In this document: positions 12,315-30,248 of the stretch, in pieces | Layout: each line of letters starts with the position of its first letter | Position numbering within the stretch: the stretch's first letter is position 1 | Virus record (IMG/VR): IMGVR_UViG_3300047178_000166 | Coordinates: 1-50,636 of that record | Strand: one strand, 5' to 3' | DNA: 50,636 bases | Source of the DNA: a virus | Made by a program: the position numbers and the translations under genes | Notes under the pieces: generated by a model | Databases searched by the model: none | What the model saw: only the letters and a program-made list of their open reading frames with translations | Told to the model about the DNA's origin: nothing

Positions 12315-12341
12315 CGGCAGCGGGAGGACTGCGCCGACTCC

Positions 12342-12396: not shown

Positions 12397-12856
12397 CGGA
12401 ACGGGCAAGCCGGGGCGTGCAGGGAACGGGGGCAGCACGTGCCTGCTTGGTCCGTGGCGGGCAACGGGAACGGGACGGGACACCGGAGGGCAGGGAGGTG
12501 AACGGGTGCCGTGGGATGTCCCTGCCGGGACGGATGGCCACGGGCTCCGTGCGGCTTCACCCATCCGACCCCAGGTACCCGTACGGATGGGGCTGGCTAA
12601 GGATCTGGCTCTCTTCCTGCTCCAGCAGCTTCCCCTTCCATAGAGCCCGACGCTACCCGGATCAGCCGAACTGCCCTGTCCCGCTCGCGGCAACCCGTCA
12701 CGACGGCACAAGGAAACCTGCCGTCGCTTGCTAGTAAACCCTTGCGGTTTTGCCGCTGCCCAGGCATAGTCCGGGTGTCGGCAGCGGACGGTGGTGCGTC
12801 TGCGGCAGGCGTCTCGGGTGACCGGCGGATGGTGGTGCGTCCTCCGGTCTGTTCAG

Positions 12857-12897
12857 AAAAGGAAGCGGCTCGGGGCAACTCGAGCCGCTTTCCTTTT
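12857..12897 (+). terminator. Rho-independent-type terminator
   Basis: AAAAGGAAGCGGCTCG, an 8-nt loop, then CGAGCCGCTTTCCTTTT followed by GTG. It is a 16-bp stem with one bulge and a T-run. Confidence 0.7.
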
Positions 12898-13025
12898 GTG
12901 CGGCGATCCGTCCCACGGCAAGGAAAAACGGCCAATAAAGTGGACCGCTCGCATTTAGTCCTTTGAGCAGGGCAGACGGTATGTAGCATCGAGGTAACGG
13001 ATTTCCCGAACCCGAGGGCCGCACC

Positions 13026-13331
13026 CTGCTTCACGCACGCTACTACACGCGCGAGCAAGACGCGCTGCTGGTCCGGCTTGCCGAGGCCGGGACGCCGTGG
13101 GCCGTCATCCATGCGCGCCTGTGCAAGCCGTGCACAATCGAGAGCCTGCGGAGTCGTTACCTCAGGATGGAGACGGCAGAGGCCCGCGCCGCCCGGCTCG
13201 GCAGGGTCGTCGACCGCGAGCCCGGAGGGAGGCGCAGGACCTGCCTCCGGTGCAGCCGTCCCTTCGAGAGCGAGGGCGTTCACAATAGGCTCTGCACGCC
13301 ATGCTCGGACTGGATCCGGGAATGCGGCTGA
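13026..13331 (+). CDS. Myb/SANT-like plus zinc-ribbon small protein; no ATG/GTG/TTG start available (candidate CTG start)
   Basis: Open frame from 12987 to TGA at 13329-13331. YYTREQDALLVRLAEAGTPWAVIHARLCKPCTIESLRSRYLRM is Myb-like, and CLRCSRPFESEGVHNRLCTPC is a CxxC...CxxC ribbon. GAGGG lies 7 nt before CTG 13026. The first ATG (13167) falls inside the domain. Confidence 0.4.
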   Translation: MLHARYYTREQDALLVRLAEAGTPWAVIHARLCKPCTIESLRSRYLRMETAEARAARLGRVVDREPGGRRRTCLRCSRPFESEGVHNRLCTPCSDWIRECG

Positions 13332-13344
13332 CCAGGGGGCGACC

Positions 13345-13950
13345 GTGATCAACGTGAAGGCCGACGTAAGCAAGCTGACCAAGGGACTCGGGCACCTCAG
13401 CGATCAGCTGCCCTACGCGACCGCGCTGGCCCTGAGCCAGGTGGCAAGGCAGGCCCGCGACGACGTGACCGCCAAGATTCCGAGCATCTTCGCTGCGAAG
13501 GGGCCGCCGACGCCGTTCACCCGGAACGCGGTCGGCTACACCTCGGCGAACAAGCGCAACCTGACCGCGACGGTGTTCGTGAAGGACGCGCAGGCGAAAT
13601 ACCTCGTGCTCGAGGAAACGGGCGGCACGCAGACCCCGGACAAGGGCTCGGCCTTCGTGCTCCCGATAGACGCCGCCCGCAACGCGTACGGCAACATGGC
13701 CAAGGGCTACCTCCAGAGGATGAAGGGCCGGAAGCGCAACCAGGCCTTTGTCGGCACCGAGCACAACATCGGCGGCTTTTGGCTGCGGCAGGCAGGAAAG
13801 CTCGTGCTCCTCGCCGAGTTCATAAAGAAGAGGACCTACAAGCCCAAGTTCCACTATCGCGAGATGGTCAAGAAGTCGGTCGACGCGAACCTCCCGGCGG
13901 CGATGACGGCAGGGATCGCGAAGGCCCTCGCCACGGCGAGGACGCCGTGA
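13345..13950 (+). CDS. Virion-associated protein, weakly lambda gpZ (tail completion)-like
   Basis: GTG at 13345 after AGGGGG. 201 aa. The N-terminal LSDQLPYATALALSQVARQARDDV resembles the gpZ N-terminus as remembered. Functional assignment is weak. Confidence 0.35.
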   Translation: MINVKADVSKLTKGLGHLSDQLPYATALALSQVARQARDDVTAKIPSIFAAKGPPTPFTRNAVGYTSANKRNLTATVFVKDAQAKYLVLEETGGTQTPDKGSAFVLPIDAARNAYGNMAKGYLQRMKGRKRNQAFVGTEHNIGGFWLRQAGKLVLLAEFIKKRTYKPKFHYREMVKKSVDANLPAAMTAGIAKALATARTP

Positions 13951-14090
13951 CCGCCAGGTTTCCCTTTGCGCGGGAGACGTCGCGGCCGACGATGGTGCCG
14001 TCCGCCGTCGCGGTGGGCTGGGTGGCTCCAGGGGTCGGCAGGGCACGCATGAAGCCGCCGACCCCAAACCTGGAGAGCTCGGAAGAATGA
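13947..14090 (+). CDS. Tiny coupled ORF (47 aa)
   Basis: It has a GTGA overlap at its 5' end and an ATGA overlap at its 3' end. There is no other support. Confidence 0.2.
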   Translation: MTARFPFARETSRPTMVPSAVAVGWVAPGVGRARMKPPTPNLESSEE

Positions 14091-14662
14091 CCACGATCCT
14101 GTGCGACCTCGACGGGACGCTTGTCGACACGGCACCGCTGGTCCGTGCCAGCTGCATCGGCGCGCTGGCCAGTCTCGGCATCGTGGCAAGCAACCTCGAC
14201 GAGCGTCCCGCGCCCGATGACGGCGTGTTCTGGACCGGCGTCGTTTCGTCGTTCGCCAGGCTGCGCGGCGTGTCCCTGGCGACCGTCCATGCCAGGCGTC
14301 GGCAGCTCTACATGGGCTCCCTGGTGCACGCGCAGGTGAACAAGGAACTGGTGCAGCGCATCCGGCGCGCTCGCCTGGAAGGGTCGTCTTCCGCATTGGT
14401 CACCAACGCGAGCAGGGTCAACGCCGATGCAATCCTTGGCACGCTGGGGATTGGCGACCTGTTCGACATACGTGTCTGCCGTGGCGACGTGTCGCAGCCC
14501 AAGCCGCACGCGGAGCCGTACACGTGCGCGATGCAGTTGCTGCGGGCCAGTCCCGCCGAGTGCTGCGCGTTCGAGGACACCGACGAAGGCATCGCTTCGG
14601 CGAACGCGGCGAACGTGGGCGTGGTGCACGACGTGCGCGGCTGGCAGGGGAGAGCATCGTGA
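14087..14662 (+). CDS. HAD-superfamily hydrolase (phosphatase-like)
   Basis: Motif I is DLDGTLVDT, motif II is VTNAS, and motifs III/IV are KP...FEDTDEG. Confidence 0.75.
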   Translation: MTTILCDLDGTLVDTAPLVRASCIGALASLGIVASNLDERPAPDDGVFWTGVVSSFARLRGVSLATVHARRRQLYMGSLVHAQVNKELVQRIRRARLEGSSSALVTNASRVNADAILGTLGIGDLFDIRVCRGDVSQPKPHAEPYTCAMQLLRASPAECCAFEDTDEGIASANAANVGVVHDVRGWQGRAS

Positions 14663-15155: not shown

Positions 15156-15721
15156 GCGACACCCTGCCCCCGGCCTTCTGCACGCAAGCCGAGTTCGCCC
15201 GACTGATGGGTGTGAGCAAGCCAGCGGTCACGCAATGGAAGGCGGCGGGTCGTCTCGTGCTGGTCGACGGCCGCGTGGACGTCGAGGCGACCAGAGCGGT
15301 CCTGGCGCGCTTCCGGCGGGAGGGCGACCCGCTTAACCCTGGTCCGAAGCCCGTCCTGGAGGGCTGGGAGCCCAAGGACGACGAGGAAGCCGAGCGCATC
15401 GCGGCCCTGGTCATCCTGGCCACGGGCTCCGAATGGACGACGGAAGAGGCGATCCGGGTGAAGGAGAGCCATCTGGCCCTGCTGAAGCGGCTCGAGTACG
15501 ACCAAAAGTCCGGGGCCGTGGTCGCGGTCGCCGAGGTCGCGGCTGCGGTGGGGGCGCAGTTCTCCCAGGTCCGCCAGCGGCTTCTCGCTATCCCCGCCGA
15601 GCAAGCCGAGGCAATCGCTCGCTGTCGTACGGTCCCGGAGGTCCGGGACCTGCTGGAGAGCCTGATCGTCGAGGTCCTACAGGCCCTGAGCCGTGGTGAC
15701 GGCGCGCCCGATGCCCCGTGA
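15152..15721 (+). CDS. terS: Terminase small subunit (Nu1-like, N-terminal HTH)
   Basis: GTGA overlap start. TQAEFARLMGVSKPAVTQWKAAGRL is HTH-like. It lies directly upstream of and overlaps terL. Confidence 0.7.
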   Translation: MSDTLPPAFCTQAEFARLMGVSKPAVTQWKAAGRLVLVDGRVDVEATRAVLARFRREGDPLNPGPKPVLEGWEPKDDEEAERIAALVILATGSEWTTEEAIRVKESHLALLKRLEYDQKSGAVVAVAEVAAAVGAQFSQVRQRLLAIPAEQAEAIARCRTVPEVRDLLESLIVEVLQALSRGDGAPDAP

Positions 15722-17741
15722 GATACCTCCGGAACGCTACGCGGTCGGCCGGGAGGCCCTGGGGCTGGCCCTGGCCGCCGCACGCTCCCTGAACCTGGCA
15801 CCGCCCCCGAAACTGACGCTGAGCGAATGGGCCGAGCGGCACGCGGTGCTCTCGAGGGAGACGTCGGCGCAGACCGGCCGTTTCCGCGCGTTCGGCTACC
15901 AGAAGGGCCTGATGGACGCCGTGACCGACCCGTCCGTGCACACGGTGACGGTGATGAAGTCGGCGCGGGTAGGCTTCACGAAGGTCCTGGATCACGTCGT
16001 CGGCTTCTTCCTGCACCAGGATCCGAGCCCCGTGCTCGTGGTGCAGCCACGTGTGGAAGACGCGGAGGACTACTCGAAAACCGAGATTTCCCCGATGCTC
16101 CGGGACACGCCCGTCCTAGCCGATATCTGCCCCCCGGCGCGCAGCAAGGACACGAGCCAGACGATCTTGAAGAAGGTGATGCTCAACGGGAGCTCGCTGA
16201 CGCTGGTCGGGGCGAACTCCCCGGGTGGCTTCAGGCGCATCACGGCGAGGGTGGTGTGCTTCGACGAGGTCGACGGCTACCCGGCGGGCGGCGCGGGCAG
16301 CGAGGGCGACCAGATAGCACTCGGCAAGAAACGGTCCGAGACTTTCTGGAACAGAAAGACAATCCTGGGCTCGACGCCGACCGTGAAGGGCGTCAGCCGG
16401 ATCGAGAAGAGCTACGCCGAGTCGGACCAGCGGGAATACAGGGTGCCGTGCCCCCAATGCGGGCACAGGCAGGCCCTGCAATGGGGCGGCAAGGACAAGG
16501 ATTACGGCATCAAGTGGGCCCGGGACGACAAGGGCGTCGGCCGACCCGAGACGGCCTACTACCTCTGCTCGAGCGGCAACGGCTGCGTGATCGAACCGGC
16601 CGACCTGCCAGCGATGGACCGCGCCGGGGAATGGGTCGCGACCCGTCCGTGCACGGGGCACGCTGGCTTCAAGCTGTGGGCCGGGATGAGCCTGTTCGTT
16701 AATGCGGCGTGGCCGAAGCTCGTCGAGGAATGGCTGCGGGTAAAGGACTCGCCCCTCGAGCGGCAGACCTTCTACAACCTGGTCCTGGGCGAGCCGTACG
16801 AGGACCGGGGCGACTACGCGCTCTCGGAGCACGTGCTGGCCGCGCGCGGCGAGATTTGGTCGGCGCAGGTGCCTGACGGCGTTGCGGTCATCACGGTCGG
16901 AATCGACACCCAGGACGGTCGCTTCGAGCTCGAGGTGGTGGGCTGGGGAGCGAATGAAGAGTCGTGGTCCCTGGCGTACGAGGTCATCGAGGGCGACCCG
17001 GACGACCCGGAGGTGCAGGCGCAGCTCGACGCGTTCCTACGGAGGCGGTGGGTGCGCGCGGACGGCCGCGAGTTCGAGGTCATGGCCGCGTGCGTGGACT
17101 CCGGCGGGCACAAGACGCAGGCCGTGTATGCCTTCAGCAAGTCACGGCTGGGCCGTCGGATCTGGGCGATCAAGGGCGAATCGGCCCGTGGCGGCATGCG
17201 GTCGCCCGTCTGGCCCACGAAGAAGCCGAACGGCCGCAGCAAGGCATCGTTCCGCCCGTTCATCATCGGCACCAACGCGGCGAAGGACGTGATCCGTAGC
17301 CGCCTTGCCCTGGCCGCGCCCGAGCAGCTCGGCCAGCCGACGCCTGGCTACTGCCATTTCCCGGCCGACCGCGATATCACGTATTTCAGCCAGCTTTTGG
17401 CCGAAAACCTAGTCACGGTCACGCTGAACGGCAAGAAGGTCAGGCTCTGGAAGCAGTCGCCGGGGCGTGCGAACGAGGCCCTGGACACGAGGGTATATGC
17501 GTATGCGGCTCTTCAGGGGCTGATCCATCTCGGACTAAAGCTCAACATGAAGGCTTCGGACGTCTGTCGGCCGATGGTGCCCTCCGTCGAGCAGCCCCCG
17601 CGCCCCGAGCCCGTCGTCGAGGCCCTCGACGTGGCCAGGATCAAGGCATGGGTGCCCCCGAACGCGGCCGACGCGCCCCCTTCCCCGCCGCCTGCGGCCC
17701 CCGAGCGGCCAAAGGTGCGGCTGCGGCGGTCCCTGGCCTGA
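15711..17741 (+). CDS. terL: Terminase large subunit, lambda GpA family
   Basis: LSEWAERHAVLSRETSAQTGRFRAFGYQKGLMDAVTDPSVHTVTVMKSARVGFTK is characteristic of the GpA N-terminus. An alternative GTG start lies at 15693. Confidence 0.9.
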   Translation: MPREIPPERYAVGREALGLALAAARSLNLAPPPKLTLSEWAERHAVLSRETSAQTGRFRAFGYQKGLMDAVTDPSVHTVTVMKSARVGFTKVLDHVVGFFLHQDPSPVLVVQPRVEDAEDYSKTEISPMLRDTPVLADICPPARSKDTSQTILKKVMLNGSSLTLVGANSPGGFRRITARVVCFDEVDGYPAGGAGSEGDQIALGKKRSETFWNRKTILGSTPTVKGVSRIEKSYAESDQREYRVPCPQCGHRQALQWGGKDKDYGIKWARDDKGVGRPETAYYLCSSGNGCVIEPADLPAMDRAGEWVATRPCTGHAGFKLWAGMSLFVNAAWPKLVEEWLRVKDSPLERQTFYNLVLGEPYEDRGDYALSEHVLAARGEIWSAQVPDGVAVITVGIDTQDGRFELEVVGWGANEESWSLAYEVIEGDPDDPEVQAQLDAFLRRRWVRADGREFEVMAACVDSGGHKTQAVYAFSKSRLGRRIWAIKGESARGGMRSPVWPTKKPNGRSKASFRPFIIGTNAAKDVIRSRLALAAPEQLGQPTPGYCHFPADRDITYFSQLLAENLVTVTLNGKKVRLWKQSPGRANEALDTRVYAYAALQGLIHLGLKLNMKASDVCRPMVPSVEQPPRPEPVVEALDVARIKAWVPPNAADAPPSPPPAAPERPKVRLRRSLA

Positions 17742-17801
17742 TCAAAGCGGGAGTCGCGGGCCTGTAGCCTCTCCGGAGCCCTTGCCGGAGGCTTCCAGCC
17801 C

Positions 17802-20800
17802 GTGACCGCATACGTTTCCGCCGCGAACGGCAATCACAACGTGGCCGCGACATGGACCCCGGCCGCCGTCCCCGGCGTCGGGGATACGGTGACCATCAAC
17901 CACGTCGTGACGGTGCCTGCGGGCGTGACTTGGCTGCTCGGTGCCAGCCCCGGCAGCTGCGTACAGGGCTCCGCGTCGGCCGCGGTGACCCAGGTCGTGC
18001 CCGGTATCACGGTGAACTCGTACCACGGCTACGCGAACTGGCTCCAAAGCGCGATCTTGACCAATAACCCGACGTTTGCGAACGCGGGCGGTGCCTCTGG
18101 CGGGCAACTGGTCGTGGCGGCGGGCGCGACCGTGCAGATCCGGGGAGATATCGTGCTGAACGGCGGGCCGATGACGCTCGCGGCGGGCGCGCAGCTGGTG
18201 TTCGACACCTCGGCGGCACCGGCCGGGACCGTGTATCGGTGCGAGGTCGCGAACCCATACAACATCAGCACGGGCGTCCTGACCTGCAACGGCACGGCGG
18301 GCTCGCGTTGCCGCATTTCCGGCACGTCGGCGAACAACTGGTGCATCAGCGGAGGCTGGAGGACGGTCGGCGTCGAGGGCTACACGCCCTACGCCGATTG
18401 GGGCGCGGCGATGTTCTACTACACGGACACGATCCAGGGCGGAATCCCGGCCTCGACGCTCCAGATGTGCCAGACCTGCGCGACGAACACGAGTGCCAGC
18501 GGCCTGAACGTGACGGGCGGCGTGCCGACGATCGTGCTCTCGAACGGTGCCACGGCGACCTACCAGTACAACTCCGCTGCCTCGCTCTTCTGGCAGACGA
18601 CCCAGGCCCGCACCTACACGAACACGCGGCAGCTCCGCATGGGCCCTGCGGGCATCACGTGGAACGGCGCGACCGTCAAGGACTCGAACGGCAGCACCCG
18701 ATCCATCCTGTCCGGTTACTCGGTGACGCAGAGCGGCTCGACCCTGACGCTGACGACGACCTGGAGCGCGCCCGCGACTGCGGTCGGCGTCCCCGTATGC
18801 CTGATGACCGATGGATCGCTGCTTTCCTACGCGAGCGGCAGCGGCACCTCGACGCTCGTCTTCTCCGGCCCGGCCAGCCAGTCCTTCGTCTCCACGGCGA
18901 GCTGCTTCGTCGACACCTTCATCAACATCGCGGCGGGGACCATCACGGACGCCTCCGGCGGCGCGGTGCCCCAGTACGGCGAGGGCGGCGGCTGCTGGTT
19001 TGCCGTTCAGACGTCGTGGATCAACGGGTCGACCACGGTCACGGACGGCCTTCCCTGGTGGTCCTTCAGACCCGCCACGAGCGCAGCCGCCGCTTCCGCG
19101 CGCAGCCTGACCTTCGGCAACTCCACCGCGCAAGGATGCACCTCCGTTCACGTCGGAGACGGCGTGCACACGCCCTCCGGCATCAACTTCTACGGGTCGG
19201 ACTTCATCGGCGGCGTCGACAACCTGGCGATCGTGAACGGCAGCCAGGGCAGCGGCATCACCGAGGGTGGCGGCGATATCGTGCTGCTGACGGGCGGTCG
19301 CATCGGCACCGGACCGAACGAGCTGCGCCTGTTCTCGGGCTGCAACTTCGCCAGGCGCGTCGTCCTCCAGAACGCCGACGACTTCACGTTCAGCGAGTGC
19401 GTGTTCGGCGACGACCTCTACATGGGCGTAGCTGGCAGCAAGAACCTCACCGTGCAGCATTGCCTGCACGTCGTGCCCAGCGGATACGTCGCGGGTGGCC
19501 AGAACTACTTCGTTTCATTCGGCTCGAAATACGATAGCAACATCTTCTGCTTCGATAGCCCGACGCTCCGCAACTCGCACGGGCTTTTCTGCGGCTTCCA
19601 GTCCGGTGCCCTGACGGGTGTTTCCGGGACCCCGCAGTATGCCTACATCACGAACAACATAGTCGAAGCACAGCGCGCCAATGCTTCCGAAGGCGGCAAT
19701 TGGATGGCCTGCACGCCAATCACGGGCGGCAGCACCTCTGCGAGCGTGCCCTACAATACTTGCGTCGTTACCGGCAACATCGTCGTTCCGCAATACAACA
19801 GCATCGCGGGCGCGGCTGGCCCCATGTCAGGCTACTACCAGGCGAACGGCGTGCTGACGATGGACGCGGCACCGGGGCAGTTGAACTGGAAAACCCTTGT
19901 ACAGGGCAATACTTTCCTGACGCAGGCGACCGGAAACGGGTGCATCGCGGCGAACGAGGGCGGCGGCACCAGCGGGCAGTTCGCGGGCATCCTCGACAAC
20001 ATCTTCTGGTCGCCCGCCTCGACCGCCGTTCCGCACGGCCCGAGCTACTGGGACCGCCACGACAACACGGTCGCAGTGGACGAGTGCCCGGCAGCGGCGT
20101 TCGACTACAACGTGCACTACAACGGTCAGACGACCGGATACTGCAACACGGGCGGCACGATTACCTCGGGCGGCAACAGCAACGCGTTCACCGGGGGCAC
20201 GAACTACCCGACCGGGCCGTACACGGGCGCGCTCTACTCGACAAGCCTCATGCCAGGCGTGCACGACGCGCGCTTCACGGGCGCGACCCCTTTTCTCGAC
20301 CAGGACCGCAGCACCTGCAAGTTCGACGCCGTGAACGGCGGGCCGGGCACCGTCGCGTCGCTCGTCGGCCAGCTTTTCCTTCGCAACGCGAACGGGATCG
20401 GCGGGCTCTACGGGCTACCCGCGAGCTACAACGCGGCCTACACGGTCGACGGCGTGTTCGGCTGGATCAAGGCGGGCTTCTCCCCGCAGGTCACGGCGGC
20501 TAACCAGGCCCTACAGAACGGCAGCTCGACGGGCGGATACGTGGGCGCGGTCGCGCCGACCCTGCCCCCCGCTGCGGTCATCACGTCCGTCGCCGCGAGC
20601 CCGAGCACGGGCGACCAGGGCGTCGGCAGCACGGTCACGCTGACCGTCGCCTTCACCCGCGCCCTGACTTTCTCCGGAGGCACCCCGACCCTATCGCTGA
20701 ACTCCGGCGGCACCGCGACGTACGTCGGCGGGAACGGGGGAACCGCCTACACCTTCACGACCACGGTCGCGGCGGGACAGTCGGCGGCGTCGCTCCAGGC

Positions 20801-23800
20801 GACGGCCTACAACGCGAACGGCGGCACGACCGTCGACCAGTTCGGCACCGCAGCCAGCCTCGGGTCCGTCCCCGCGATAGCCGCGAGCCCGCAGATCGAC
20901 GGCGTCGCGCCGACCCTGGCCGCCCTTGCCTTCAGCCCTTCCACGGGCACCCTGAAGGCGGGCGCGTCCGTCGCGATCACCCTGACCGCGAGCGAGCCCG
21001 TCACGGTCACCGGCTCCCCGACCCTGAGCACGAACCTCGGGCCTGCAGCCTTCAACGCGGGCGCGAGCACGGCGACCTCGCTGGTGTTCGCGTTGACGGT
21101 CCCGGCTGGTCAGACCGCCTCCCCCGTCGCGGTTTCCGCGTTCAACTTGGGCGGCGGCACGGTCCTCGACGGCGCGGGCAACGCGCTCGTGCAGACGCTG
21201 CCCGCCCCGGGCGCGGCCCCCAACGCTGACGGCGTGGCCCCCGTGGTGTCCTCCGTGGTGTTCGCGCCGACATCCGGCTTCCTGGGGGTTGGCGCGACCT
21301 ACGCGATTTCGCTTGCTGTCAGCAAGTCGGTGACCGTGACGGGCTCCCCGGCCCTCACGATGAGCGACGGCAGCACCGCCCCGCTGAACGCGGGCGCGAG
21401 CACCCCTACCTCGCTCGTTTTCGGCGGCACCGTGCACGCGGGGGCTACCGCGAGCCCGCTCGGCGTATCCTCGCTGAACCTCAACGGCGGCACGATCAAG
21501 GACGGCCCCGGCAACGCCCTGAACGCTGCGGGCGCGACCTCCGCTCCCACGGGCGGCGCGCCTTCCGCTGACGGCGTGGTCCCGGTCGTCTCCTACGTGC
21601 ACGCGAGCCCGCCTTCGGGCGACGAGGGCGCGGGCCAGACGATCACGTTCACTGTGGCGACCAGCAAGGCCGTTACGGTTGTCGGCGCGCCGTCCCTTAC
21701 GCTGAACGACGGGCGCAGCGCGGCCTTCGTCGCGGGCTCGAGCACCCCGACCTCGCTCGCGTTCACCTACACCGTGCAGCCGGGCGACGTCGCGTCGCAG
21801 CTCTCGGTCACCGCCTTCGCCATGAACGGGGCGACGATCCTCGACGAGGCATCGAACGCCCTGGTCGCGACGGGCGCGGTCGGCGTCCCAACCGGCGGAT
21901 CTCCGCAAGTCGACGGCGTCATCCCGGTCGTGTCCTCCGTGGCCTTCTCCCCCGTCTCCGGCACCGTCCCGGCGGGCGGCACCATCACGATCACCCTCGC
22001 CCTGAGCAAGGCGATCACCGTCACGGGCGCGCCCTCGCTGACCCTCTCCGGAGGCGCGTCGGCCGCTTACGTCCCTGCCAGCTCGACGCCGACCTCGCTC
22101 GCGTTCACCTACACGGTGCAGCCCGGATACGCCGCCGCCCCCGTGTCGGTGTCTGGCCTGTCCCTGTCCGGGGCGACCGCCAGGGACGCCGCCGGGAACT
22201 CGCTGAACGCGTCCGGTGCGACCTCCGCTCCCACGGGCGGCGCGCCTTCCGCTGACGGCGTGGCCCCGGTCGTGTCGTCCGTCTCCGTGTCCCCGCAGGG
22301 TGCCGACCTCGGCGTCGGCGCGGCGGCGACCTTCACCCTCGCCCTGAGCAAGGCCGTGACCGTATCCGGCGCGCCCTCGCTGACCCTGACGGACGGCGGC
22401 AGCGCGAGCTACGTCGGCGCGAGCAGCACCCCGACCGCCCTGGCCTTCCGCTACGCGGTCCGCGCGGGCGACGTCGCGCAGGCCCTGGGCGTGTCCGCCC
22501 TGTCCCTGAACGGCGGGACCGTCACCGACGCCGCCGGGAACGCGCTCGTGTCCTCCGGCGCGGCCGGGACCCCTGCGGGAGCACCGCAGGTCGACGGCGT
22601 CGCACCGACCGTATCAGGCCTTTCCGCCGCCGCCGGGACCTACGGGGCGGGTGCCACGGTCGCGATCACCGTCGCCCTGAGCAAGGCTTGCAGCGTCTCG
22701 GGCGGCGCGCCCGTGCTGACGACCCCGTTCGGTGCGGCTACCTACTCCGGGGCCGCTTCCGGCTCCCAGGCCCTCGTGTTCGACCTCGTGGTGCCAGCTG
22801 GTGCCACGGGTGCTCTGACCGTGGGCCCGCTGACCGGGACGATCGCCGACGCGGCCGGGAACCCGCTCGTGGCCAGCGGTGCCACGGGCATCGTGTCCGG
22901 TATCACGCTGGACGGCGTGGCTCCCGTCGTGGCCTCGGTCACCGCCGCCGCAGGAAGCTACTTCTCGGGCGAGCAGGTCCTGATCGCGGTCGCGACCAGC
23001 AAGGCGGTCACCGTCTCGGGGACCCCGAGCCTGGCAACCTCCATCGGCACCGCGACCTACCTGCCGGGCAGCAGCAGCGCGACCGTGCTCGAGTTCTCGC
23101 TGACCATCGCATCGAACGCGGCCCTTGGCCCCATCTCGACGACGGGCCTGACCGACGCGGGCGGATCCATCGTCGACGAGGCCGGGAACGCACTGGTCGC
23201 GACCGGGGCCGCGTGCGCCCTGCCCGGCGTGGTCGTGGTGCCGAACTCCCCGACCGTCACCGGGGCGACCGCCACGGCCGGGACGTATCCTGCGGGCTCG
23301 GTCTTGAGCATCGTGCTCGGCTTCAGCATGGCCGTCGCGTTCGCGGGCCCGTCCCCCATCCTCGACCTCAACATCGGCGCGGCGCACCTCGCGAGCACGA
23401 CGGCGACCACGGCGACGTTCTCCGTCGTCGTCCCCGCCGGGGCGCAGGCCGCCGTCGTCGTGACCGACCTGAACCTGAACGGCGGGACGATCACGTCTGT
23501 GGCGTCCGGTGCCGCCCTGTCCGGGCCCTGCACCTTCTCGCTCGCGGGCGTCTTTGCCGCTGGCGCGCCGCCCGCCGTGACCGGAGTGTCCGCCCCGGCC
23601 GGGGAATACGGCGCGGGTGCCACGATCCTGGTCCGCGTGGCGACGTCGGCCGCGACCCGCCTGGTCGACGCCGCGCAGCCGCCCGTGCTCTGGACCGCGC
23701 TCGGCCCCGCCTACTACGTCGCTGCCAGCTCGACCCCGGTCAGCCTGGCGTTCGACCTCGTGGTCCCGCCCGGGGCGTCCTCTTCCTCGCTGGTCACGAC

Positions 23801-24854
23801 CGCCCTGTCGGTCGGCGGCGGCATCACCGACGCGGCCGGGAACAACCTGGTCGTGACAGGGGCCGCCGCGACCGTCGCGGGGGTCATCGTCGACGCGGTC
23901 GCGCCGACCATCACCTCGGTCACCTGCGCCCCGGGCGACTACGGCATCGGGTCCGCCCCGGCCATCGTGCTCGGACTGTCCAAGCCCGTCATCGTGTCCG
24001 GACCGATCCAGCTGCTGACCTCGGTCGGGTCCGCGACCTACGTCCCTGCGGGGAGCAGCGCGACCAGCCTGCGCTTCGCCGCGTCGGTGGCCGCTGGCAC
24101 CCTTCCCGGTACCCTGGCGGTGCTGGCCTTCCAAGCCAACGGCGGGTCGGTGGTCGACGCGGCCGGGAACGGGCTCGTGCAGGGGGGCGCGGCTGCGCTG
24201 CTCCAGGGCTGCGTCGCGGACGGCACCACGGCGACCGTCGTCGGCATCACGTCCAACCTCTCCGTGGTCGCGGTCGGAAGCACGGTCGAACTCCGGATAC
24301 AGACCAGCAAGCCGCTCGCAGTGCCGTCGCTAGGCGGCATCTCGGCCGCGCTCTCGAACGGCGCGACGGTGGCCCTGTCCTACGTCAGCGGATCTCTGCT
24401 CGGCTTCCTCTACGTCCCGGCCGGGACCGACGTCGCCGCGCCCGTGACGCTGGTTTCCTTGTCCGTCCCCGGCCCGCTGCTCGACGGCTTCGGCAACCCC
24501 GCCGACCTGACGGGCGCGGCGGGAACCATCGGTCAGGGCCTGTCGGTCGTCTCGGGGCTCCAGCCCATCCCATCGGCCTCGAGCCAGCTCGACCCCTACT
24601 GCCAGCCCATCGTCCCGGCCGAGTTCGTGGGGCTTCCTGCGGCGACGCTGACGCAATGGCTGGCCGACTGCCAGAACGCGCTTCAGCAGCTGGAGACAGG
24701 GGCGATTACCGTGTCCGTGAGCTACCAGGGGACCGGCGGCACCTCGGCGACCTTCACGGCTGCGGACTCCGACCGCCTGCGGCAGCGCATCCGGGCCCTG
24801 TCCTCCGCCCTGGGCCTGACGCCGCGCCGCCGCCCCATGCGACCGGGATTTTAA
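17802..24854 (+). CDS. Giant 2350-aa protein: beta-helix N-terminal region, about 12 Ig-like repeats, C-terminal gpW-like head-tail joining domain
   Basis: A single uninterrupted frame between terL and portal. See the findings for the domain evidence. Confidence 0.8.
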   Translation: MTAYVSAANGNHNVAATWTPAAVPGVGDTVTINHVVTVPAGVTWLLGASPGSCVQGSASAAVTQVVPGITVNSYHGYANWLQSAILTNNPTFANAGGASGGQLVVAAGATVQIRGDIVLNGGPMTLAAGAQLVFDTSAAPAGTVYRCEVANPYNISTGVLTCNGTAGSRCRISGTSANNWCISGGWRTVGVEGYTPYADWGAAMFYYTDTIQGGIPASTLQMCQTCATNTSASGLNVTGGVPTIVLSNGATATYQYNSAASLFWQTTQARTYTNTRQLRMGPAGITWNGATVKDSNGSTRSILSGYSVTQSGSTLTLTTTWSAPATAVGVPVCLMTDGSLLSYASGSGTSTLVFSGPASQSFVSTASCFVDTFINIAAGTITDASGGAVPQYGEGGGCWFAVQTSWINGSTTVTDGLPWWSFRPATSAAAASARSLTFGNSTAQGCTSVHVGDGVHTPSGINFYGSDFIGGVDNLAIVNGSQGSGITEGGGDIVLLTGGRIGTGPNELRLFSGCNFARRVVLQNADDFTFSECVFGDDLYMGVAGSKNLTVQHCLHVVPSGYVAGGQNYFVSFGSKYDSNIFCFDSPTLRNSHGLFCGFQSGALTGVSGTPQYAYITNNIVEAQRANASEGGNWMACTPITGGSTSASVPYNTCVVTGNIVVPQYNSIAGAAGPMSGYYQANGVLTMDAAPGQLNWKTLVQGNTFLTQATGNGCIAANEGGGTSGQFAGILDNIFWSPASTAVPHGPSYWDRHDNTVAVDECPAAAFDYNVHYNGQTTGYCNTGGTITSGGNSNAFTGGTNYPTGPYTGALYSTSLMPGVHDARFTGATPFLDQDRSTCKFDAVNGGPGTVASLVGQLFLRNANGIGGLYGLPASYNAAYTVDGVFGWIKAGFSPQVTAANQALQNGSSTGGYVGAVAPTLPPAAVITSVAASPSTGDQGVGSTVTLTVAFTRALTFSGGTPTLSLNSGGTATYVGGNGGTAYTFTTTVAAGQSAASLQATAYNANGGTTVDQFGTAASLGSVPAIAASPQIDGVAPTLAALAFSPSTGTLKAGASVAITLTASEPVTVTGSPTLSTNLGPAAFNAGASTATSLVFALTVPAGQTASPVAVSAFNLGGGTVLDGAGNALVQTLPAPGAAPNADGVAPVVSSVVFAPTSGFLGVGATYAISLAVSKSVTVTGSPALTMSDGSTAPLNAGASTPTSLVFGGTVHAGATASPLGVSSLNLNGGTIKDGPGNALNAAGATSAPTGGAPSADGVVPVVSYVHASPPSGDEGAGQTITFTVATSKAVTVVGAPSLTLNDGRSAAFVAGSSTPTSLAFTYTVQPGDVASQLSVTAFAMNGATILDEASNALVATGAVGVPTGGSPQVDGVIPVVSSVAFSPVSGTVPAGGTITITLALSKAITVTGAPSLTLSGGASAAYVPASSTPTSLAFTYTVQPGYAAAPVSVSGLSLSGATARDAAGNSLNASGATSAPTGGAPSADGVAPVVSSVSVSPQGADLGVGAAATFTLALSKAVTVSGAPSLTLTDGGSASYVGASSTPTALAFRYAVRAGDVAQALGVSALSLNGGTVTDAAGNALVSSGAAGTPAGAPQVDGVAPTVSGLSAAAGTYGAGATVAITVALSKACSVSGGAPVLTTPFGAATYSGAASGSQALVFDLVVPAGATGALTVGPLTGTIADAAGNPLVASGATGIVSGITLDGVAPVVASVTAAAGSYFSGEQVLIAVATSKAVTVSGTPSLATSIGTATYLPGSSSATVLEFSLTIASNAALGPISTTGLTDAGGSIVDEAGNALVATGAACALPGVVVVPNSPTVTGATATAGTYPAGSVLSIVLGFSMAVAFAGPSPILDLNIGAAHLASTTATTATFSVVVPAGAQAAVVVTDLNLNGGTITSVASGAALSGPCTFSLAGVFAAGAPPAVTGVSAPAGEYGAGATILVRVATSAATRLVDAAQPPVLWTALGPAYYVAASSTPVSLAFDLVVPPGASSSSLVTTALSVGGGITDAAGNNLVVTGAAATVAGVIVDAVAPTITSVTCAPGDYGIGSAPAIVLGLSKPVIVSGPIQLLTSVGSATYVPAGSSATSLRFAASVAAGTLPGTLAVLAFQANGGSVVDAAGNGLVQGGAAALLQGCVADGTTATVVGITSNLSVVAVGSTVELRIQTSKPLAVPSLGGISAALSNGATVALSYVSGSLLGFLYVPAGTDVAAPVTLVSLSVPGPLLDGFGNPADLTGAAGTIGQGLSVVSGLQPIPSASSQLDPYCQPIVPAEFVGLPAATLTQWLADCQNALQQLETGAITVSVSYQGTGGTSATFTAADSDRLRQRIRALSSALGLTPRRRPMRPGF
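20570..24560 (+). repeat. Coding tandem array of about 12 repeats of roughly 105-115 aa (Ig-like), inside the giant ORF
   Basis: Repeats begin DGVAPVVSSV / DGVIPVVSSV / DGVAPTVSGL. They share the consensus SKAVTVTGAPSLTL..G.SA.YV.GSSTPTSLAFTYTV.PGD....L.V.A..LNGGT..DAAGNAL. Confidence 0.85.
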
Positions 24855-24857: not shown

Positions 24858-26573
24858 ATGGCATACCGCATCAGCAGGATACCGAACGCGCCCGTCGCCC
24901 CGGGGCGCGGGCTCGCGCTGCCGTCCCCCGGGGGACGGCCCAGGCACCTCGCGGGGCTCCAGGGCGGGCTCCAGGGCGCGGCTTTTCCTTACGACGCCGC
25001 CGCGATCACGACCCCGGAGTTCGGGGAGTGGCTGCCCTCCATCCGTGGCCCGGACATGGAGATCAACTACTGGCGCGACCGCATGGTCGCCCGCTCCAGG
25101 GACCTCGTTCGAAACGACGGCTGGTGCTCCGGCTCCATCACCCGGATACTGGACTCCCTGCTCGGCGGCAGCTACCGCCTCGCCTGCATGCCCGACTACC
25201 GCTTCCTCGCGCGGCAGGGTGGCCCGTCATACGATGCGGTGTGGGCCGAGGAATTCCGGCAGTTCGTTGAGGGCGAGTGGCGCGCCTGGAGCGAGGATAT
25301 CGGCCATTGGAACGACGCGACCGGCGAGATGACGGTCACTCAGCAGTTCCGTCAGTTCCTCTGGCACTACCTCGTCGACGGTGACGGCTTCGCGGTCTGC
25401 TACAGCCTTCCCGACCAGATCGGGCGGGGTGCCGCGAAATACGCGACCAGCTGGCAGGTCATCGACCCGGACCGCCTGAGCAACCCGAACAACATGGTCG
25501 ACCAGAAGCACCTGCGGGGCGGCGTCGAGCTGAACGAGCGCGGTCGGCCAATCGCCTACCACGTCCGGAAGGCGGAACAGAACTCGTGGTACGAGGCCGT
25601 CGAGTCGGTGACGTGGGAGCGCATCGAACGCGACGACCCGGACGGCTGGCAGAGGGCGATTCACCATCACTCCCGCGAGAGGGCCGGGCAGCATCGCGGC
25701 CTCGGAATCTTCCTTCCCGTCCTGGGGCGGCTGAAGATGCTCGCGAAATACTACGGGACCGAGCTCCAGGCCGCCGCCATCGCATCGACGTTCGGCACCT
25801 ACATCACTTCTCCTTTCGACCCGCAGCTCGTCGAGAGCGCGCTGGACGCGGGCAGCGACGGCGCGGGCGAGGCTTGGAGCTACTATCAGGGCATCCGCAG
25901 CGACTTCCACGAGCAGCACCGTCCGCAGCTCAACGGAGCGACAATCCCCACGCTCGCGCCGGGCGAAAAAATCGAGACCGTATCAGCAGAAAGGCCCAAT
26001 TCCGCGTTCAGCGACTTCACGCACGAGATGCTGAGGGGCGTGGCGTCCTGCATCAACGTCTCTTACGAGCAGCTGACGCAGGACTACTCGGAAACCAACT
26101 ACAGCAGCGCGCGTGCTGCCGTGGCCGAGACGGAGCGAAGCATCCGCCGCCGCCTTGCAGAGTTCAACTCCGGCTGCGCCAACAAGGTCTATGCGAACTT
26201 CCTCCAGGAGGTATTCGAGCAGGGCAAGGTGCCGCTGCCGCGCGGTGCCGTCGACTTCCTCGACGCGCGCACGGCCTACGCGCGCTGCCTGTGGCGCGGC
26301 CCCGGCGCGGGCCTGATCGACGGCCTGAAGGAGCGTCAGGCGACCGGGCTCGGCCTCGACCTGGGCCTTACGACGCTCCAGGAAGCCGTCGCGGGCGAGA
26401 GCGGTGCGGACTGGCAGGAGGTGCTCGAGCAGCGCGCCATCGAGCTCGCCAAGTGCAAGGAGCTCGGCCTTCCGCCCCCGAGCTGGTCGGCCCCGCCGCC
26501 GGGCTCCGGAGGGACGGACGACGACGAGGGCAAGGGGAAGAACGCGACCCCGACGCCGCCGCAGGCGAAGTAG
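24858..26573 (+). CDS. Portal protein, lambda family
   Basis: 571 aa. INYWRDRMVARSRDLVRNDGWCSGSITRILDSLLG fits the lambda-type portal N-terminal region. The position is as expected. Confidence 0.85.
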   Translation: MAYRISRIPNAPVAPGRGLALPSPGGRPRHLAGLQGGLQGAAFPYDAAAITTPEFGEWLPSIRGPDMEINYWRDRMVARSRDLVRNDGWCSGSITRILDSLLGGSYRLACMPDYRFLARQGGPSYDAVWAEEFRQFVEGEWRAWSEDIGHWNDATGEMTVTQQFRQFLWHYLVDGDGFAVCYSLPDQIGRGAAKYATSWQVIDPDRLSNPNNMVDQKHLRGGVELNERGRPIAYHVRKAEQNSWYEAVESVTWERIERDDPDGWQRAIHHHSRERAGQHRGLGIFLPVLGRLKMLAKYYGTELQAAAIASTFGTYITSPFDPQLVESALDAGSDGAGEAWSYYQGIRSDFHEQHRPQLNGATIPTLAPGEKIETVSAERPNSAFSDFTHEMLRGVASCINVSYEQLTQDYSETNYSSARAAVAETERSIRRRLAEFNSGCANKVYANFLQEVFEQGKVPLPRGAVDFLDARTAYARCLWRGPGAGLIDGLKERQATGLGLDLGLTTLQEAVAGESGADWQEVLEQRAIELAKCKELGLPPPSWSAPPPGSGGTDDDEGKGKNATPTPPQAK

Positions 26574-26583
26574 GAGACGGTCG

Positions 26584-26823
26584 ATGAGGCGGGGGCAGTC
26601 GGGGACCTGGTGGATCGTCAACCTGAGCTACCCCGGGGAGCCGCCCGTCTATTGGACGGCCGACGTGCGTGGCCAGGGGCATCACGGACTGTCCTTCGAT
26701 CACCGGCAGGCGGCGCAGTTCGACACGCCCGAGCAGGCACACTTCAACGCCCGCCTGCTCGGGCTGGCCGACGCGCTGCCGCACTACCGGGTCGAACACC
26801 ACGCCTGGATCGACGGCGTCTAG
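26584..26823 (+). CDS. Hypothetical protein (79 aa)
   Basis: ATG at 26584 with AGGAG 7 nt upstream. Confidence 0.5.
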   Translation: MRRGQSGTWWIVNLSYPGEPPVYWTADVRGQGHHGLSFDHRQAAQFDTPEQAHFNARLLGLADALPHYRVEHHAWIDGV

Positions 26824-26862
26824 TTGACGCTTGCGTCCGTTGTCCCTACCATCAGGGACAAG
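26824..26862 (+). promoter_or_regulatory. Promoter-operator module 2
   Basis: TTGACG, 17-nt spacer, TACCAT, overlapped by the palindrome TTGTCCCT-ACCATC-AGGGACAA at 26840-26861. It is nearly identical to the reverse complement of module 1. Confidence 0.6.
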
Positions 26863-26987
26863 AGGGCAGTTCCCTCGGCACCACACGGAGACGCACCAAT
26901 GCGAGAAAAAGAATCCCCGCCGCACGCACGACCCTGACTACTACGACCTGCCGCTTCCGAACGGCCTCACCCTCGGCCGTAGCGCGG

Positions 26988-27746
26988 TCAGGGCGATACC
27001 CTTTTCTTGATAGCATCAAGGTAACCCGTCTCGCGCTCGATACCAATGGCACGGAATCCTCCAGCCAACGCAGCTGACAACGTGCTGCCGCTCCCGGCGA
27101 ACGGGTCCAGCACGAGGCCGCCCGGTGGGGTAACTACTTCGATGAGGCACCCCAGAAGTTCGGCTGGCTTCTCCGTGGGGTGGTCGCCGTTACGGACAGG
27201 CTTGCAGGACAGCACGTTGCCGATGTCGCGACGCTGCGGCGGATTGCCCGTTCCGTTCGTGAAATGCAGCACGAACTCATGTTGATTGCGGAAGCAGGAG
27301 CCCATGCCGAAATAGGTCTTGTTCCACACCAGAACGCCGCAGTGCTTCAGGTCGGCACTCTCGATTGCGGCTGCCAGATGCGGAGCCATGCGCCAGTCGA
27401 TAAAAACCAGGGCGTGGCCTCCGGGAACCAGCAGATCGCGCCATAGCAAGGCACACTCCCGCATCATCCATACAAAGCTATGCGCCGTCAGGGCGTCATT
27501 GCCAAACCAATCGGCGGCACCCATTCCACGTGTCATGGCCTTCCTAGTCCCCTTGGATGCCTCCATCCTGGTGCCGCTGGAATACGGAGGGTCGGTTACA
27601 ACCGAGTCCACGCGGACGCCACGGTCTACCAATGCCCGCATGACCTGCAAGCAGTCGCCAATATAAATCTCGGATTGGCCATTATCGTGCGCCGGTGCCA
27701 GGGTAATGCTGGGAGCCTCTATGCTCAGTTTGGTGAGATTGGTCAT
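26988..27746 (-). CDS. Beta-class amino DNA methyltransferase (N6-adenine or N4-cytosine), orphan
   Basis: ATG at 27746 after AAGGAG. DPPY comes first (VVTDPPYSS), then HPTEKP and FAGSGST at the C-terminus. The region looks lower in GC than its neighbours. Confidence 0.85.
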   Translation of the reverse strand: MTNLTKLSIEAPSITLAPAHDNGQSEIYIGDCLQVMRALVDRGVRVDSVVTDPPYSSGTRMEASKGTRKAMTRGMGAADWFGNDALTAHSFVWMMRECALLWRDLLVPGGHALVFIDWRMAPHLAAAIESADLKHCGVLVWNKTYFGMGSCFRNQHEFVLHFTNGTGNPPQRRDIGNVLSCKPVRNGDHPTEKPAELLGCLIEVVTPPGGLVLDPFAGSGSTLSAALAGGFRAIGIERETGYLDAIKKRVSP

Positions 27747-27796
27747 GCGAGTCTCCTTCGGTATGGCAACGGCAAACCTTCGCTGCCGTCGATGCA
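27744..27796 (-). repeat. Duplicated leader cassette, copy 1 (ends exactly at the methyltransferase ATG)
   Basis: 31 nt (one mismatch), a 10-nt variable block, then 12 identical nt, compared with 28042-28094. Confidence 0.85.
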
Positions 27797-27810
27797 AGAT
27801 GCGTTGGCCT

Positions 27811-28044
27811 TCACCGTCTCGCGGCCGAGCCAGCCGCAGCGTCCCTCCACCGAGGATTTCTCAGGGGGACCCCGCCGTCAAAGGATTTATTCGTGGGCGC
27901 GCAACGCGTGGCTTGCGAGAGGGGGGGGCGTCCGCCCCGGCGATCTCGAGCGCGAGGGCGGCTGAACCGTGACGTGCTCCGCTCCTCCTTAGAGAGCAGG
28001 CGCAGGACAAGGATATCTTCCGGGCTCAGGTCTTCGAGTTTCAT
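27811..28044 (-). CDS. Hypothetical small protein (77 aa)
   Basis: Its ATG sits at the same position in the duplicated leader cassette as the methyltransferase ATG. The C-terminal half is low complexity. Confidence 0.35.
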   Translation of the reverse strand: MKLEDLSPEDILVLRLLSKEERSTSRFSRPRARDRRGGRPPLSQATRCAPTNKSFDGGVPLRNPRWRDAAAGSAARR

Positions 28045-28094
28045 GCGAGTCGCCTTCGGTATGGCAACGGCAGCCCCTCAGAGCCGTCGATGCA
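28042..28094 (-). repeat. Duplicated leader cassette, copy 2
   Basis: See copy 1. Confidence 0.85.
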
Positions 28095-28185
28095 GGGCCG
28101 GGGCCGCTCCGCAGGGGGCGGCCCTTTCCTTTTGCGCTGGCCGCAGAGGGCGCGGGGTGCGATCCTGTCGGCCGGGAGGAAGGTC

Positions 28186-28422
28186 ATGGGAGAGATCAGG
28201 CGCATCGTCGGGGGCTACGCGGCCTACCGTGGCGGGGTCCTCCTGCCGGGACGCTACGCGACCGCCCTGGCCGCCCGCGCCGCCCTCTTGATCGATGCCC
28301 AGGACCTGGAGCGCGCCGCCGCCAGCTGCGCCCCCGGCACCGTACCGTTCCAGGTCCTGGCCGACCTGTTCGACGCCGGGGACCAGAGGTCCCTGAGCGA
28401 CATGATGACCGCGCCGCCCTGA
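28186..28422 (+). CDS. Hypothetical protein (78 aa)
   Basis: ATG at 28186 after GGGAGGAAGG. Confidence 0.5.
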   Translation: MGEIRRIVGGYAAYRGGVLLPGRYATALAARAALLIDAQDLERAAASCAPGTVPFQVLADLFDAGDQRSLSDMMTAPP

Positions 28423-28469
28423 AGACGTCCGGGCCCGGCAAGGAAAATCCTTGCGTGGCGGTCGCATGT

Positions 28470-28745
28470 GTCCCCCTACGGGAAACCCGAATGGCCCGCC
28501 ACGGGCCACGGGAACGCGAAAAACGGCATGCCCGAAAACTCGTCACGGGGCACCCAGGGCGGGCACAATACGGGCCCGCGCACGGGGATACGGGAAACCC
28601 GAAACGGCCGCATAGCGCGAGGTGATTACCGAGAACAAAAGTTATCGGTAATCCCGTCCAAAGGTGACGCATGCAGCTGTTACGATAACAGTTACCGTAA
28701 CAGCTTGCCGTAACGTTATCCTGTAACGTTATCAGGTTTCGTTAC
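28470..28745. repeat. Repeat-dense, lower-GC non-coding region
   Basis: ACGGGAAACCCGAA-type repeats lie at 28478-28491, 28508-28526 and 28590-28607. A 9-bp inverted repeat GATTACCGA/TCGGTAATC lies at 28624-28653. A GTTAC/GTAAC array follows: 28679-28689, palindrome 28691-28701, and tandem GTAACGTTATC at 28710-28720 and 28723-28733. Confidence 0.85.
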
Positions 28746-28749
28746 AGGA

Positions 28750-28938
28750 TCACCGCTCCAGCCTGCCCATCGCCGCCGCCGCCTCGCGTGCGCGCGCGAG
28801 CTGCTCAAGGAGGATATCGGCGTCCCGCAGGTAGAGCTCGGACAGGTAGGTCGCGCCCGGCGTGTCGTGGCGCACGACGACCCGGTTCGGCAGGGCGAAC
28901 GCCTGGAAGCTGCTCTCGTGGTCCATGCCCGCAGGCAT
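28750..28938 (-). CDS. Hypothetical small protein (62 aa)
   Basis: The ORF has protein-like composition. GGAGGA lies 12 nt upstream of the ATG, which is a long spacing. Confidence 0.4.
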   Translation of the reverse strand: MPAGMDHESSFQAFALPNRVVVRHDTPGATYLSELYLRDADILLEQLARAREAAAAMGRLER

Positions 28939-28969
28939 GCCGCCCGCGAGTCCTCCAGCCCGAACGAAG

Positions 28970-28997
28970 AAGGGGCACCCCGAGCGGGGTGCCCCTT
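28970..28997 (-). terminator. Strong hairpin after the 392-aa gene
   Basis: AAGGGGCACCCC-GAGC-GGGGTGCCCCTT, a 12-bp perfect stem. On the minus strand it is followed by CTTCGTTCG. Confidence 0.6.
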
Positions 28998-29022
28998 GCC
29001 GTTCCGAGACGGGCGCGACGGG

Positions 29023-30201: not shown

Positions 30202-30248
30202 GTCTTTCTTCCTCCGTGTGGCGACGGCCGACCTTGTGTTAGGTCCTT

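Follow-up and report, generated by a model that had tools for sequence, protein, structure and literature searches.

A gpW-family head-tail adaptor domain forms the C-terminus of a 2350-residue protein with Ig-like repeats in a metagenomic phage

Head-tail adaptors are generally viewed as minimal and conserved 'plumbing' of the phage particle. One of them is gpW, a small protein that closes the head and serves the tail as its docking point. Here we describe a phage whose adaptor domain of the gpW family stands at the end of a polypeptide of 2350 amino acids (aa), behind a long array of immunoglobulin-like (Ig-like) repeats and two all-beta domains. The phage is represented by a viral stretch of 50,636 nt with about 70% GC (IMG/VR record IMGVR_UViG_3300047178_000166), which we refer to in its full length as the window. 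Its ends (1-127 and 50510-50636) form an exact direct overlap of 127 nt, as is typical of a circular assembly at k=127; the assembly is circular, and the window is therefore the complete genome of about 50.5 kb. A first-pass annotation made from the sequence alone had pointed to a giant frame in the position of a small adaptor gene and had suggested that its product projects fibres from the phage neck.

The giant frame and its gpW domain

The genes and domains at the locus are listed below; repeat positions were obtained with a hidden Markov model (HMM) derived from the giant protein's own sequence.

15693..17741, plus strand: large terminase, GpA type (PF05876 E=7e-70, PF20454 E=2e-80)
17742..17801, plus strand: 60-nt spacer between the terminase gene and the giant frame, with a GGAGG Shine-Dalgarno sequence at 17787-17791, 10 nt before the GTG
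17802..24854, plus strand: candidate fibre-gpW fusion gene, GTG start, 2350 codons plus stop (24852-24854), 2350 aa
17802..18431, plus strand: domain A, all-beta orphan at the distal N-terminus, residues 1-210, 47% identical to residues 1-198 of protein P0003
18432..18989, plus strand: two embedded Ig-like repeats, residues 211-306 and 298-396 (repeat HMM E-values 4e-17 and 1.3e-21)
18999..20561, plus strand: domain B, all-beta orphan with Asn-containing rung-like motifs, residues ~400-920, 31-36% identical to P0003 413-914
20571..24524, plus strand: stalk of 12 tandem Ig-like repeats, residues 924-2241, period 106-114 aa (repeat HMM)
24513..24596, plus strand: Pro/Ser-rich linker, predicted to be flexible, residues ~2238-2265, aligning with the linker of protein P0026
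24597..24851, plus strand: gpW head-tail adaptor domain, residues ~2266-2350 (~85 aa, the C-terminal 4% of the protein)
24627..24629, plus strand: in-frame GTG, codon 2276, an unsupported candidate internal start for a free gpW
24858..26573, plus strand: portal of the lambda family (PF05136 E=1e-89), its ATG beginning 3 nt past the stop of the fusion gene

The single uninterrupted frame of 2350 codons reported in the first-pass annotation was recovered exactly at 17802..24854. By our own calculation the probability that such a stop-free run arises by chance at 70% GC is about 1e-20, and the third codon position has the highest GC content (GC3) in 47 of 47 consecutive 150-nt segments of the frame, the gpW junction included; base composition thus gives no indication of a frameshift. 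Three pipelines call the same gene, and they label it 'hypothetical protein' or leave it unnamed. The repeat units are old: their median amino acid identity is 43%, and their DNA matches do not exceed 84% and stay below 60 nt in length. With no exact repeat longer than 46 nt, compared with k=127, a misassembly driven by the repeats is unlikely. Protein P0131, considered as a second, independent assembly of the long form, turned out to stem from the same contig and differs only by V versus M at residue 1.

The C-terminus of this frame, compared by eye with lambda gpW in the first-pass annotation, is recognized by two family profiles. For PF02831 the bit score is 32.1 with the whole protein and rises to 39.0 when the last 82 aa are taken alone (gathering cutoff 22.5), and the match to phrog_75, 'head-tail adaptor Ad1', takes in positions 5-73 of that family's 73 (E=2.4e-16). 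Free-standing gpWs of 81-95 aa from a dozen loci, whose portals are 49-55% identical, align over the whole domain. Among PDB entries the domain alone retrieves only lambda gpW (1HYW), and weakly (E=0.33); a profile of its clade reaches E=9e-22 against 1HYW, a value that is not independent because the profile contained lambda gpW itself.

The same assignment is suggested by structure prediction. An AlphaFold2 model of residues 2034-2350, built from an 80-row alignment, has a mean predicted local distance difference test score (pLDDT) of 74.5 and of about 90 in the gpW part. It shows a helix at residues 2280-2298, a beta-hairpin at 2303-2319, a second helix at 2320-2336 and an extended 14-residue C-arm at 2337-2350 (helix 247-265, strands 270-275 and 281-286, helix 287-303 and extended tail in model numbering), while pLDDT drops below 50 at model residues 205-232, which correspond to the linker. 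In a Foldseek search of BFVD the gpW part matches a 73-aa 'Head-tail adapter protein' with a probability of 1.00 and a TM-score of 0.65. In the lambda virion, gpW consists of a helix at residues 4-22, a hairpin at 23-36, a helix at 37-54 and a C-arm at 55-68 (PMC10721106). The two domains (lambda gpW: PF02831; PDB 1HYW, 8K38) thus have the same topology with elements of near-identical length and a C-terminal arm of the RRR..GF type.

They also share the slot. As the first-pass annotation had stated, the gene lies between a GpA-type terminase (PF05876/PF20454) and a lambda-family portal (PF05136), which is the gpW position in its relatives and in the phages BZS1 and phiAP1. Lambda gpW is, however, a single-domain protein, and about 60-130 aa is the size of the small gpWs, compared with 2350 aa here. 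A further difference concerns the tip of the hairpin: the column aligned to lambda Arg31, which stands beside the DNA-clamping Arg32, holds Lys or Arg in 87 of 100 gpW representatives and Thr in the window. In profile, fold and position the C-terminus hence belongs to the gpW family, from which it departs in size and in its hairpin-tip residue. A six-frame HMM search of the genome revealed no second gpW copy; the sole gpW domain of this phage is the C-terminus of the 2350-aa polypeptide, without any signal that it is expressed separately.

How unusual this is can be gauged from an exhaustive phmmer search with the 92-aa gpW domain against 1.84 billion representative proteins, which gave 106 matches. 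The first-pass annotation had recommended looking for other long proteins with a W domain, and one was found, the 324-aa protein P0026; apart from it and the query, all full-length matches (about 100 representatives) measure 53-129 aa. P0060, P0086, P0091, P0094, P0112, P0122 and P0123 were considered as further fusions and rejected, as their partial matches fall into many internal stretches and amount to repeat-like noise rather than a gpW at the C-terminus. At every other locus examined, about 55 viral, metagenomic and genome loci, a short gpW sits in a gap of about 350-600 nt. Short gpWs also occur in prophages of metagenome-assembled genomes of Aliidongia and Bradyrhizobium, and among cultured phages in Serratia BZS1 (87 aa) and Acetobacter phiAP1 (100 aa). 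A tblastn search of the domain against 50,697 phage records gave no match. Virfam handles gpW-type adaptors as small single proteins (PMC4362835), and our full-text literature and database searches yielded no description of a fused or extended gpW, in agreement with the first-pass annotation, which knew of no described equivalent.

The extension, its relatives and its origin

About 12 repeats of roughly 110 aa had been noticed upstream of the gpW domain, and the repeat HMM bears this out with the 12 units of the stalk. Searches of Pfam and NCBIfam brought no curated Ig-like family above threshold for these repeats, the best being fn3_5 and Ig_CFAP65_4th at E ~0.02, and the only PHROG matched is phrog_30287, of unknown function. 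The AlphaFold2 model of a repeat is a confident all-beta sandwich (pLDDT ~90). In the PDB its fold is matched best by tandem Ig-like arrays, namely the Bap C-region, Met IPT domains and SiiE, although weakly at E >=5e-3, and in BFVD it matches the P-SSM7 'S-layer domain protein' (E=2.4e-4, probability 1.0). The label 'Ig-like' is accordingly one of predicted structure, not of membership in a Pfam Ig family.

The repeat family is common to bacterial proteins of 2000-3900 aa at 29-41% identity, and wherever their context is visible the neighbourhoods are chromosomal. The large homologues P0006 and P0010, on contigs of 41-49 kb, were considered as phage genes and rejected as chromosomal. Among known systems, the bacterial giant Ig-repeat adhesins (SiiE, the Bap C-region and the DUF4347-type 'Ig-like domain-containing proteins') resemble the phage protein in their repeats, but they are cell-surface proteins encoded on chromosomes and contain neither a gpW domain nor domains A and B. 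When the whole protein was compared by tblastn with the 50,697 phage records, a single 100-aa repeat match in Marinobacter phage PS6 was obtained.

The distal part of the protein is an orphan. For domains A (1-210) and B (400-930) there is no Pfam match at E up to 10 and none in NCBIfam, PHROGs or PDB sequences, and pattern scans of viral contigs and JGI metagenomes for the N-terminal module detected no relatives. The first-pass annotation had read the first ~900 aa as a right-handed beta-helix carrying an enzymatic or adhesive function. The motifs on which this was based are indeed in the translation (NNIV, GNIV, GNTF and DNIF as well as a DYNVHY...GVHD...PF stretch), and rung-like N-x-[IVF] motifs are conserved in P0003. 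The fold assignment itself could not be confirmed and is a lead: no Beta_helix, NosD, Pectate_lyase or related profile matches residues 1-210 and 400-930 at E up to 10, and NCBIfam, PHROGs and PDB sequences offer no match either. A helix over ~900 aa is also an overstatement, as the region contains the two embedded Ig-like repeats (211-396). Nor did any tool lend support to an enzymatic or adhesive domain. An AlphaFold2 model of residues 1-930 from a two-sequence alignment has a mean pLDDT of 30.5 and displays just short strands at regular spacing; for domain B a beta-solenoid is possible.

P0003 is the sole protein related to domains A and B. This unannotated metagenomic protein comprises 1537 aa (10001-14614 of locus L001) and is 39% identical to the giant protein over 1535 aligned columns; the two have in common the N-terminus, the orphan domains A and B, the pair of embedded repeats and some five units of the stalk. 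It has no gpW domain and ends in a unique tail of ~45 aa (...VALVKPSSLPAASSLGVADGLLVVVGGKVSVMSLASLKVLLG), for which no family match was obtained in Pfam (E up to 10), NCBIfam, PHROGs or PDB sequences and which presumably is its own virion anchor. The P0003 gene belongs to an unrelated myophage with a terminase and a portal of other types than those of the window. It is found there in a group of small genes of the neck region, with the major capsid gene on one side and the tail sheath gene on the other. The shared part is thus a virion-module gene that occurs with at least two different C-terminal ends.

How the fusion arose can be read at its two junctions. The spacer 17742..17801 aligns, Shine-Dalgarno sequence and GTG included, to the terminase-gpW spacer of locus L083 (z=12.6; 0 of 1000 shuffles reach the score), the locus of P0027, which is the closest free-standing gpW (86 aa, 60% identical). 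Past the GTG the sequence follows the fibre gene P0003 of L001 instead: GTGACCGC.T.CGT.TCCGCCGC.AACGGCAA. At the 3' junction nearly the entire gpW frame is kept, with DPYCQPIVPAEFVG here compared with (M)PAPYVPAEFVG in P0027. Together, the homology of spacer, Shine-Dalgarno sequence and GTG and the retained gpW frame show that a fibre cassette of ~2260 codons was inserted in frame directly behind the gpW start codon. This cassette consists of the two orphan all-beta distal domains, the two embedded Ig-like repeats and the 12-repeat stalk, and the whole frame is driven by the ancestral gpW spacer, Shine-Dalgarno sequence and start codon. The duplex of the frame's own start with the anti-Shine-Dalgarno sequence has an energy of -9.5 kcal/mol, compared with a median of -7.4 for 17 confident genes.

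A separate observation at the 5' junction is that the eight codons with which the fibre begins, V-T-A-Y-V-S-A-A (17802-17825), resemble V-P-A-P-Y-V-P-A-E of gpW (L083 287-313) at ~19 of 24 nt with a gap of one codon. This likeness may reflect microhomology that guided the insertion, or coincidence.

The second fused protein, P0026, is at the same time the closest relative of the query gpW domain (57% identity in gpW, 41% overall). Encoded at locus L038 and, like P0003, metagenomic and unannotated, it consists of two Ig repeats, a homologous Pro-rich linker and gpW. It is colinear with the giant protein over the final 318 residues of the latter and has neither the distal head nor the greater part of the stalk. 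Its gene has its own GGAG Shine-Dalgarno sequence and GTG start and occupies the slot between a GpA terminase and a lambda-type portal, both ~65% identical to those of the window. Sequence comparison thus indicates that the Ig-linker-gpW arrangement has been kept open in two well-diverged genomes. In L038 some 800 nt of stop-rich sequence (3511-4329), called as a minus-strand frame of 207 aa, part the terminase from the fusion gene; this stretch has no similarity to the giant protein. Further downstream (10947-13386) the same contig carries a gpFII-like gene of 293 aa and a sheath of only 220 aa, and some of its gene sizes may reflect assembly errors.

Candidate neck fibres and competing explanations

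What could an adaptor with such an extension do in the virion? Twelve gpW subunits form the adaptor ring of lambda, where their hairpins build a lumenal beta-barrel and the C-arm extends to the portal wing, joining residues 320-324 by beta-augmentation (PMC10721106). With both C-arm and hairpin engaged in this topology, assembly could tolerate an extension at the N-terminus alone, from which it would point outward. The first-pass annotation had proposed fibres projecting from the neck, and the lambda topology supports this logic, since an extension at the N-terminus does not obstruct the arm that binds the portal. Free gpW relatives already have 10-25 extra N-terminal residues compared with lambda. 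We therefore consider the best reading to be an obligate adaptor-fibre fusion that forms neck fibres, to which we assign a probability of roughly 0.6. Probably up to twelve long fibres are anchored directly in the phage neck.

In such a phage, the gpW domains would assemble after DNA packaging as the usual 12-mer ring beneath the portal, the C-arms inserting into the portal and the beta-hairpins lining the channel. Because helix 1 runs into the lumenal hairpin, the N-terminus of each subunit would lie at the outer rim of the ring, near the exit of the C-arm. From there the ~28-residue low-confidence linker would lead out to the stalk and decouple it from the ring. Ig-like domains in arrays of this kind measure ~3.5-4 nm each, and a 12-repeat stalk would hence be roughly 40-60 nm long, keeping the N-terminal head module away from the neck in up to 12 fibres per virion. 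The 660-aa tape measure implies a tail of ~100 nm, so the fibres might reach about halfway down the tail or extend sideways. Their most likely role, by analogy, would be reversible primary adhesion to a host surface polysaccharide or matrix that raises adsorption, with specific binding left to a separate tail fibre at the baseplate (45305-46810). The giant frame itself was also considered as a tail fibre gene and rejected, since the phage has a normal baseplate and this fibre gene of its own.

A more far-reaching version of this reading has, in our estimate, about an even chance. It states that all infectious particles need twelve 2350-residue subunits for the adaptor ring, which would make the fibres obligate, covalent and fixed in stoichiometry. 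These fibres would derive from a mobile cassette inserted precisely at the gpW start codon, and with the same cassette differently anchored in an unrelated myophage they would represent a plug-in appendage with exchangeable anchors.

Fibres that emanate from the head-tail junction, as proposed here, are known from T4 wac (fibritin), Vibrio phage XM1 gp40, the collar-whisker of Bas63/Sf14 and the fibre network on podophage GP4. In Bas63 a 12-fold ring built from Ig-like subunits of the collar sits on the periphery of adaptor and stopper and is disulfide-linked to Cys2 of the adaptor (PMC12609058), and the geometry expected for the fusion would be analogous to this collar. All these appendages are, however, separate docking proteins, whereas here fibre and adaptor are one polypeptide; the stoichiometry would therefore be fixed at 12 and assembly coupled to head completion. 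None of the searches made found sequence similarity to the appendage proteins of T4 wac, XM1 gp40, Bas63/Sf14 or GP4. What is new in the proposed system is the covalent union of neck fibre and adaptor, which would work like a collar or whisker and lies outside all of those families.

Another comparison is offered by T4 Hoc and similar Ig-like decorations, which likewise have a C-terminal anchor with Ig domains projecting N-terminally and for which weak adhesion to glycans has been proposed. The Ig-like domains of mycobacteriophage Douge bind host glycans (PMC13033339). Decorations of the Hoc type carry 1-4 Ig domains on capsid or tail-tube proteins, in contrast to 14 repeats and ~730 aa of orphan domains on an adaptor here.

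Several points weigh against adaptor-borne neck fibres. We infer the placement of the fusion protein at the head-tail junction and in virions from gpW topology alone, and twelve subunits of 240 kDa might hinder assembly of the ring. At the Arg31 column the query has Thr and P0026 has Gln, so both fused gpWs are without a Lys or Arg at the hairpin tip; in the query no basic residue occurs anywhere in the hairpin-turn region (24708-24740, residues ~2303-2313), which is the case in only 11 of 100 sequences. This could mean that adaptor function is altered or relaxed. Since no binding or catalytic family was recognized in the distal module (Pfam, NCBIfam, PHROGs, PDB sequences), the adhesive role is argued by analogy. 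Finally, the long form is known from one assembly, and L038, the locus of the second fusion, is a contig of 3x coverage with some oddly sized tail genes.

The alternative that survives best, although we regard it as unlikely, is that the gene makes two products: mostly a free gpW of ~75 aa translated from an internal start, either GTG 24627 or a non-canonical one, with the giant fusion in a few of the 12 positions. Such a mixed ring would relieve any steric problem, and nested or minor-product strategies are exemplified by lambda C/Nu3. The GTG at codon 2276 is in frame and close to the starts of free gpWs, and an ATG and a GTG are found in frame near the same place in L038. Against this stand the translation signals. 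The anti-Shine-Dalgarno duplex at GTG 24627 amounts to -1.8 kcal/mol, which is background level, with 70% of the 112 internal in-frame start codons scoring as well or better, and the homologous codon in L038 is GTC. Moreover, gpW homology extends 5' of this GTG (PIVPAEF here compared with PIPAEI, YVPAEF and QVPAEY in free gpWs), so that a start there would cut off a conserved N-terminal segment.

Somewhat less probable still is an accident or artefact, in which a fibre gene beside gpW lost its stop codon by mutation or assembly error and the contig represents a defective phage or a chimera. The single metagenomic assembly of the long form and the lost basic residue would fit this view, as would a second insertion of ~4.8 kb in the head module, which suggests a genome in flux. 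It is countered by junctions that are both in frame, the 5' one exactly at the start codon, by 2350 open codons with coding GC3 throughout, and by a circular genome with intact head, tail and lysis genes and no repeat beyond 46 nt that could mislead the assembly. In addition, Ig repeats, linker and gpW have been kept open in L038, a relative at about 65% protein identity.

The least probable explanation, a precursor whose linker is cut by autoproteolysis or by the S49 head protease to yield an ordinary gpW together with a separate fibre, attached elsewhere or absent from the virion, can point to the disordered Pro/Ser-rich stretch of ~28 residues before gpW, to the S49 protease encoded by the phage (31384-32289) and to phage fibres that auto-cleave their C-terminal intramolecular chaperone domains, but no chaperone or protease family was detected anywhere in the protein, the linkers of the query and P0026 share no cleavage motif beyond general composition, and lambda gpW acts outside the filled head, when prohead protease activity is already over.

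If the adaptor-fibre fusion is functional, the gpW N-terminus would be a permissive display site on the virion with 12 copies at a defined position, which could be useful for phage engineering and display. It would likewise illustrate a genetically simple path to neck fibres, in which a single in-frame insertion suffices and no docking interface has to evolve anew, and be a natural case of a fibre module moving between phages by exchanging its C-terminal anchor. The orphan all-beta head module of ~730 aa is present in at least two unrelated phages.

Other features of the genome

The remaining contig is that of an ordinary myophage. Besides the S49 protease it encodes a gpD-like decoration protein, a gpE-like capsid protein, a head-closure gene of the Hc1/FII type (34398-34730), sheath, tube, tape measure, baseplate and endolysin. 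The real genome length is ~50,509 bp, some 6-8 kb more than the 43-45 kb of cultured relatives, and this excess is consistent with two insertions, the fibre cassette and the stretch between the portal and S49 genes. The phage probably infects an alphaproteobacterium, as the terminase of the Aliidongia prophage is 68% identical.

The latter stretch spans ~4.8 kb (26574-31383), whereas the two genes abut or overlap in L085/L086, L038, BZS1 and phiAP1; it is a second insertion in the head module. It carries a minus-strand gene of 391 aa (29023-30201) with a resolvase-type helix-turn-helix (PF13384, PF02796) and several frames without a family, and at 26-28 kb the GC content falls to 0.65.

The genome also encodes an AbiEii-type nucleotidyltransferase toxin (354-1286; PF08843, E=2e-22), and the small frame directly upstream (43-372) could be its antitoxin partner. 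Two further genes lie at module borders: a HAD-family hydrolase (14087-14662) just 5' of the packaging genes and a metallo-phosphoesterase-like protein (phrog_221; 47343-48575) between the tail fibre region and the endolysin.

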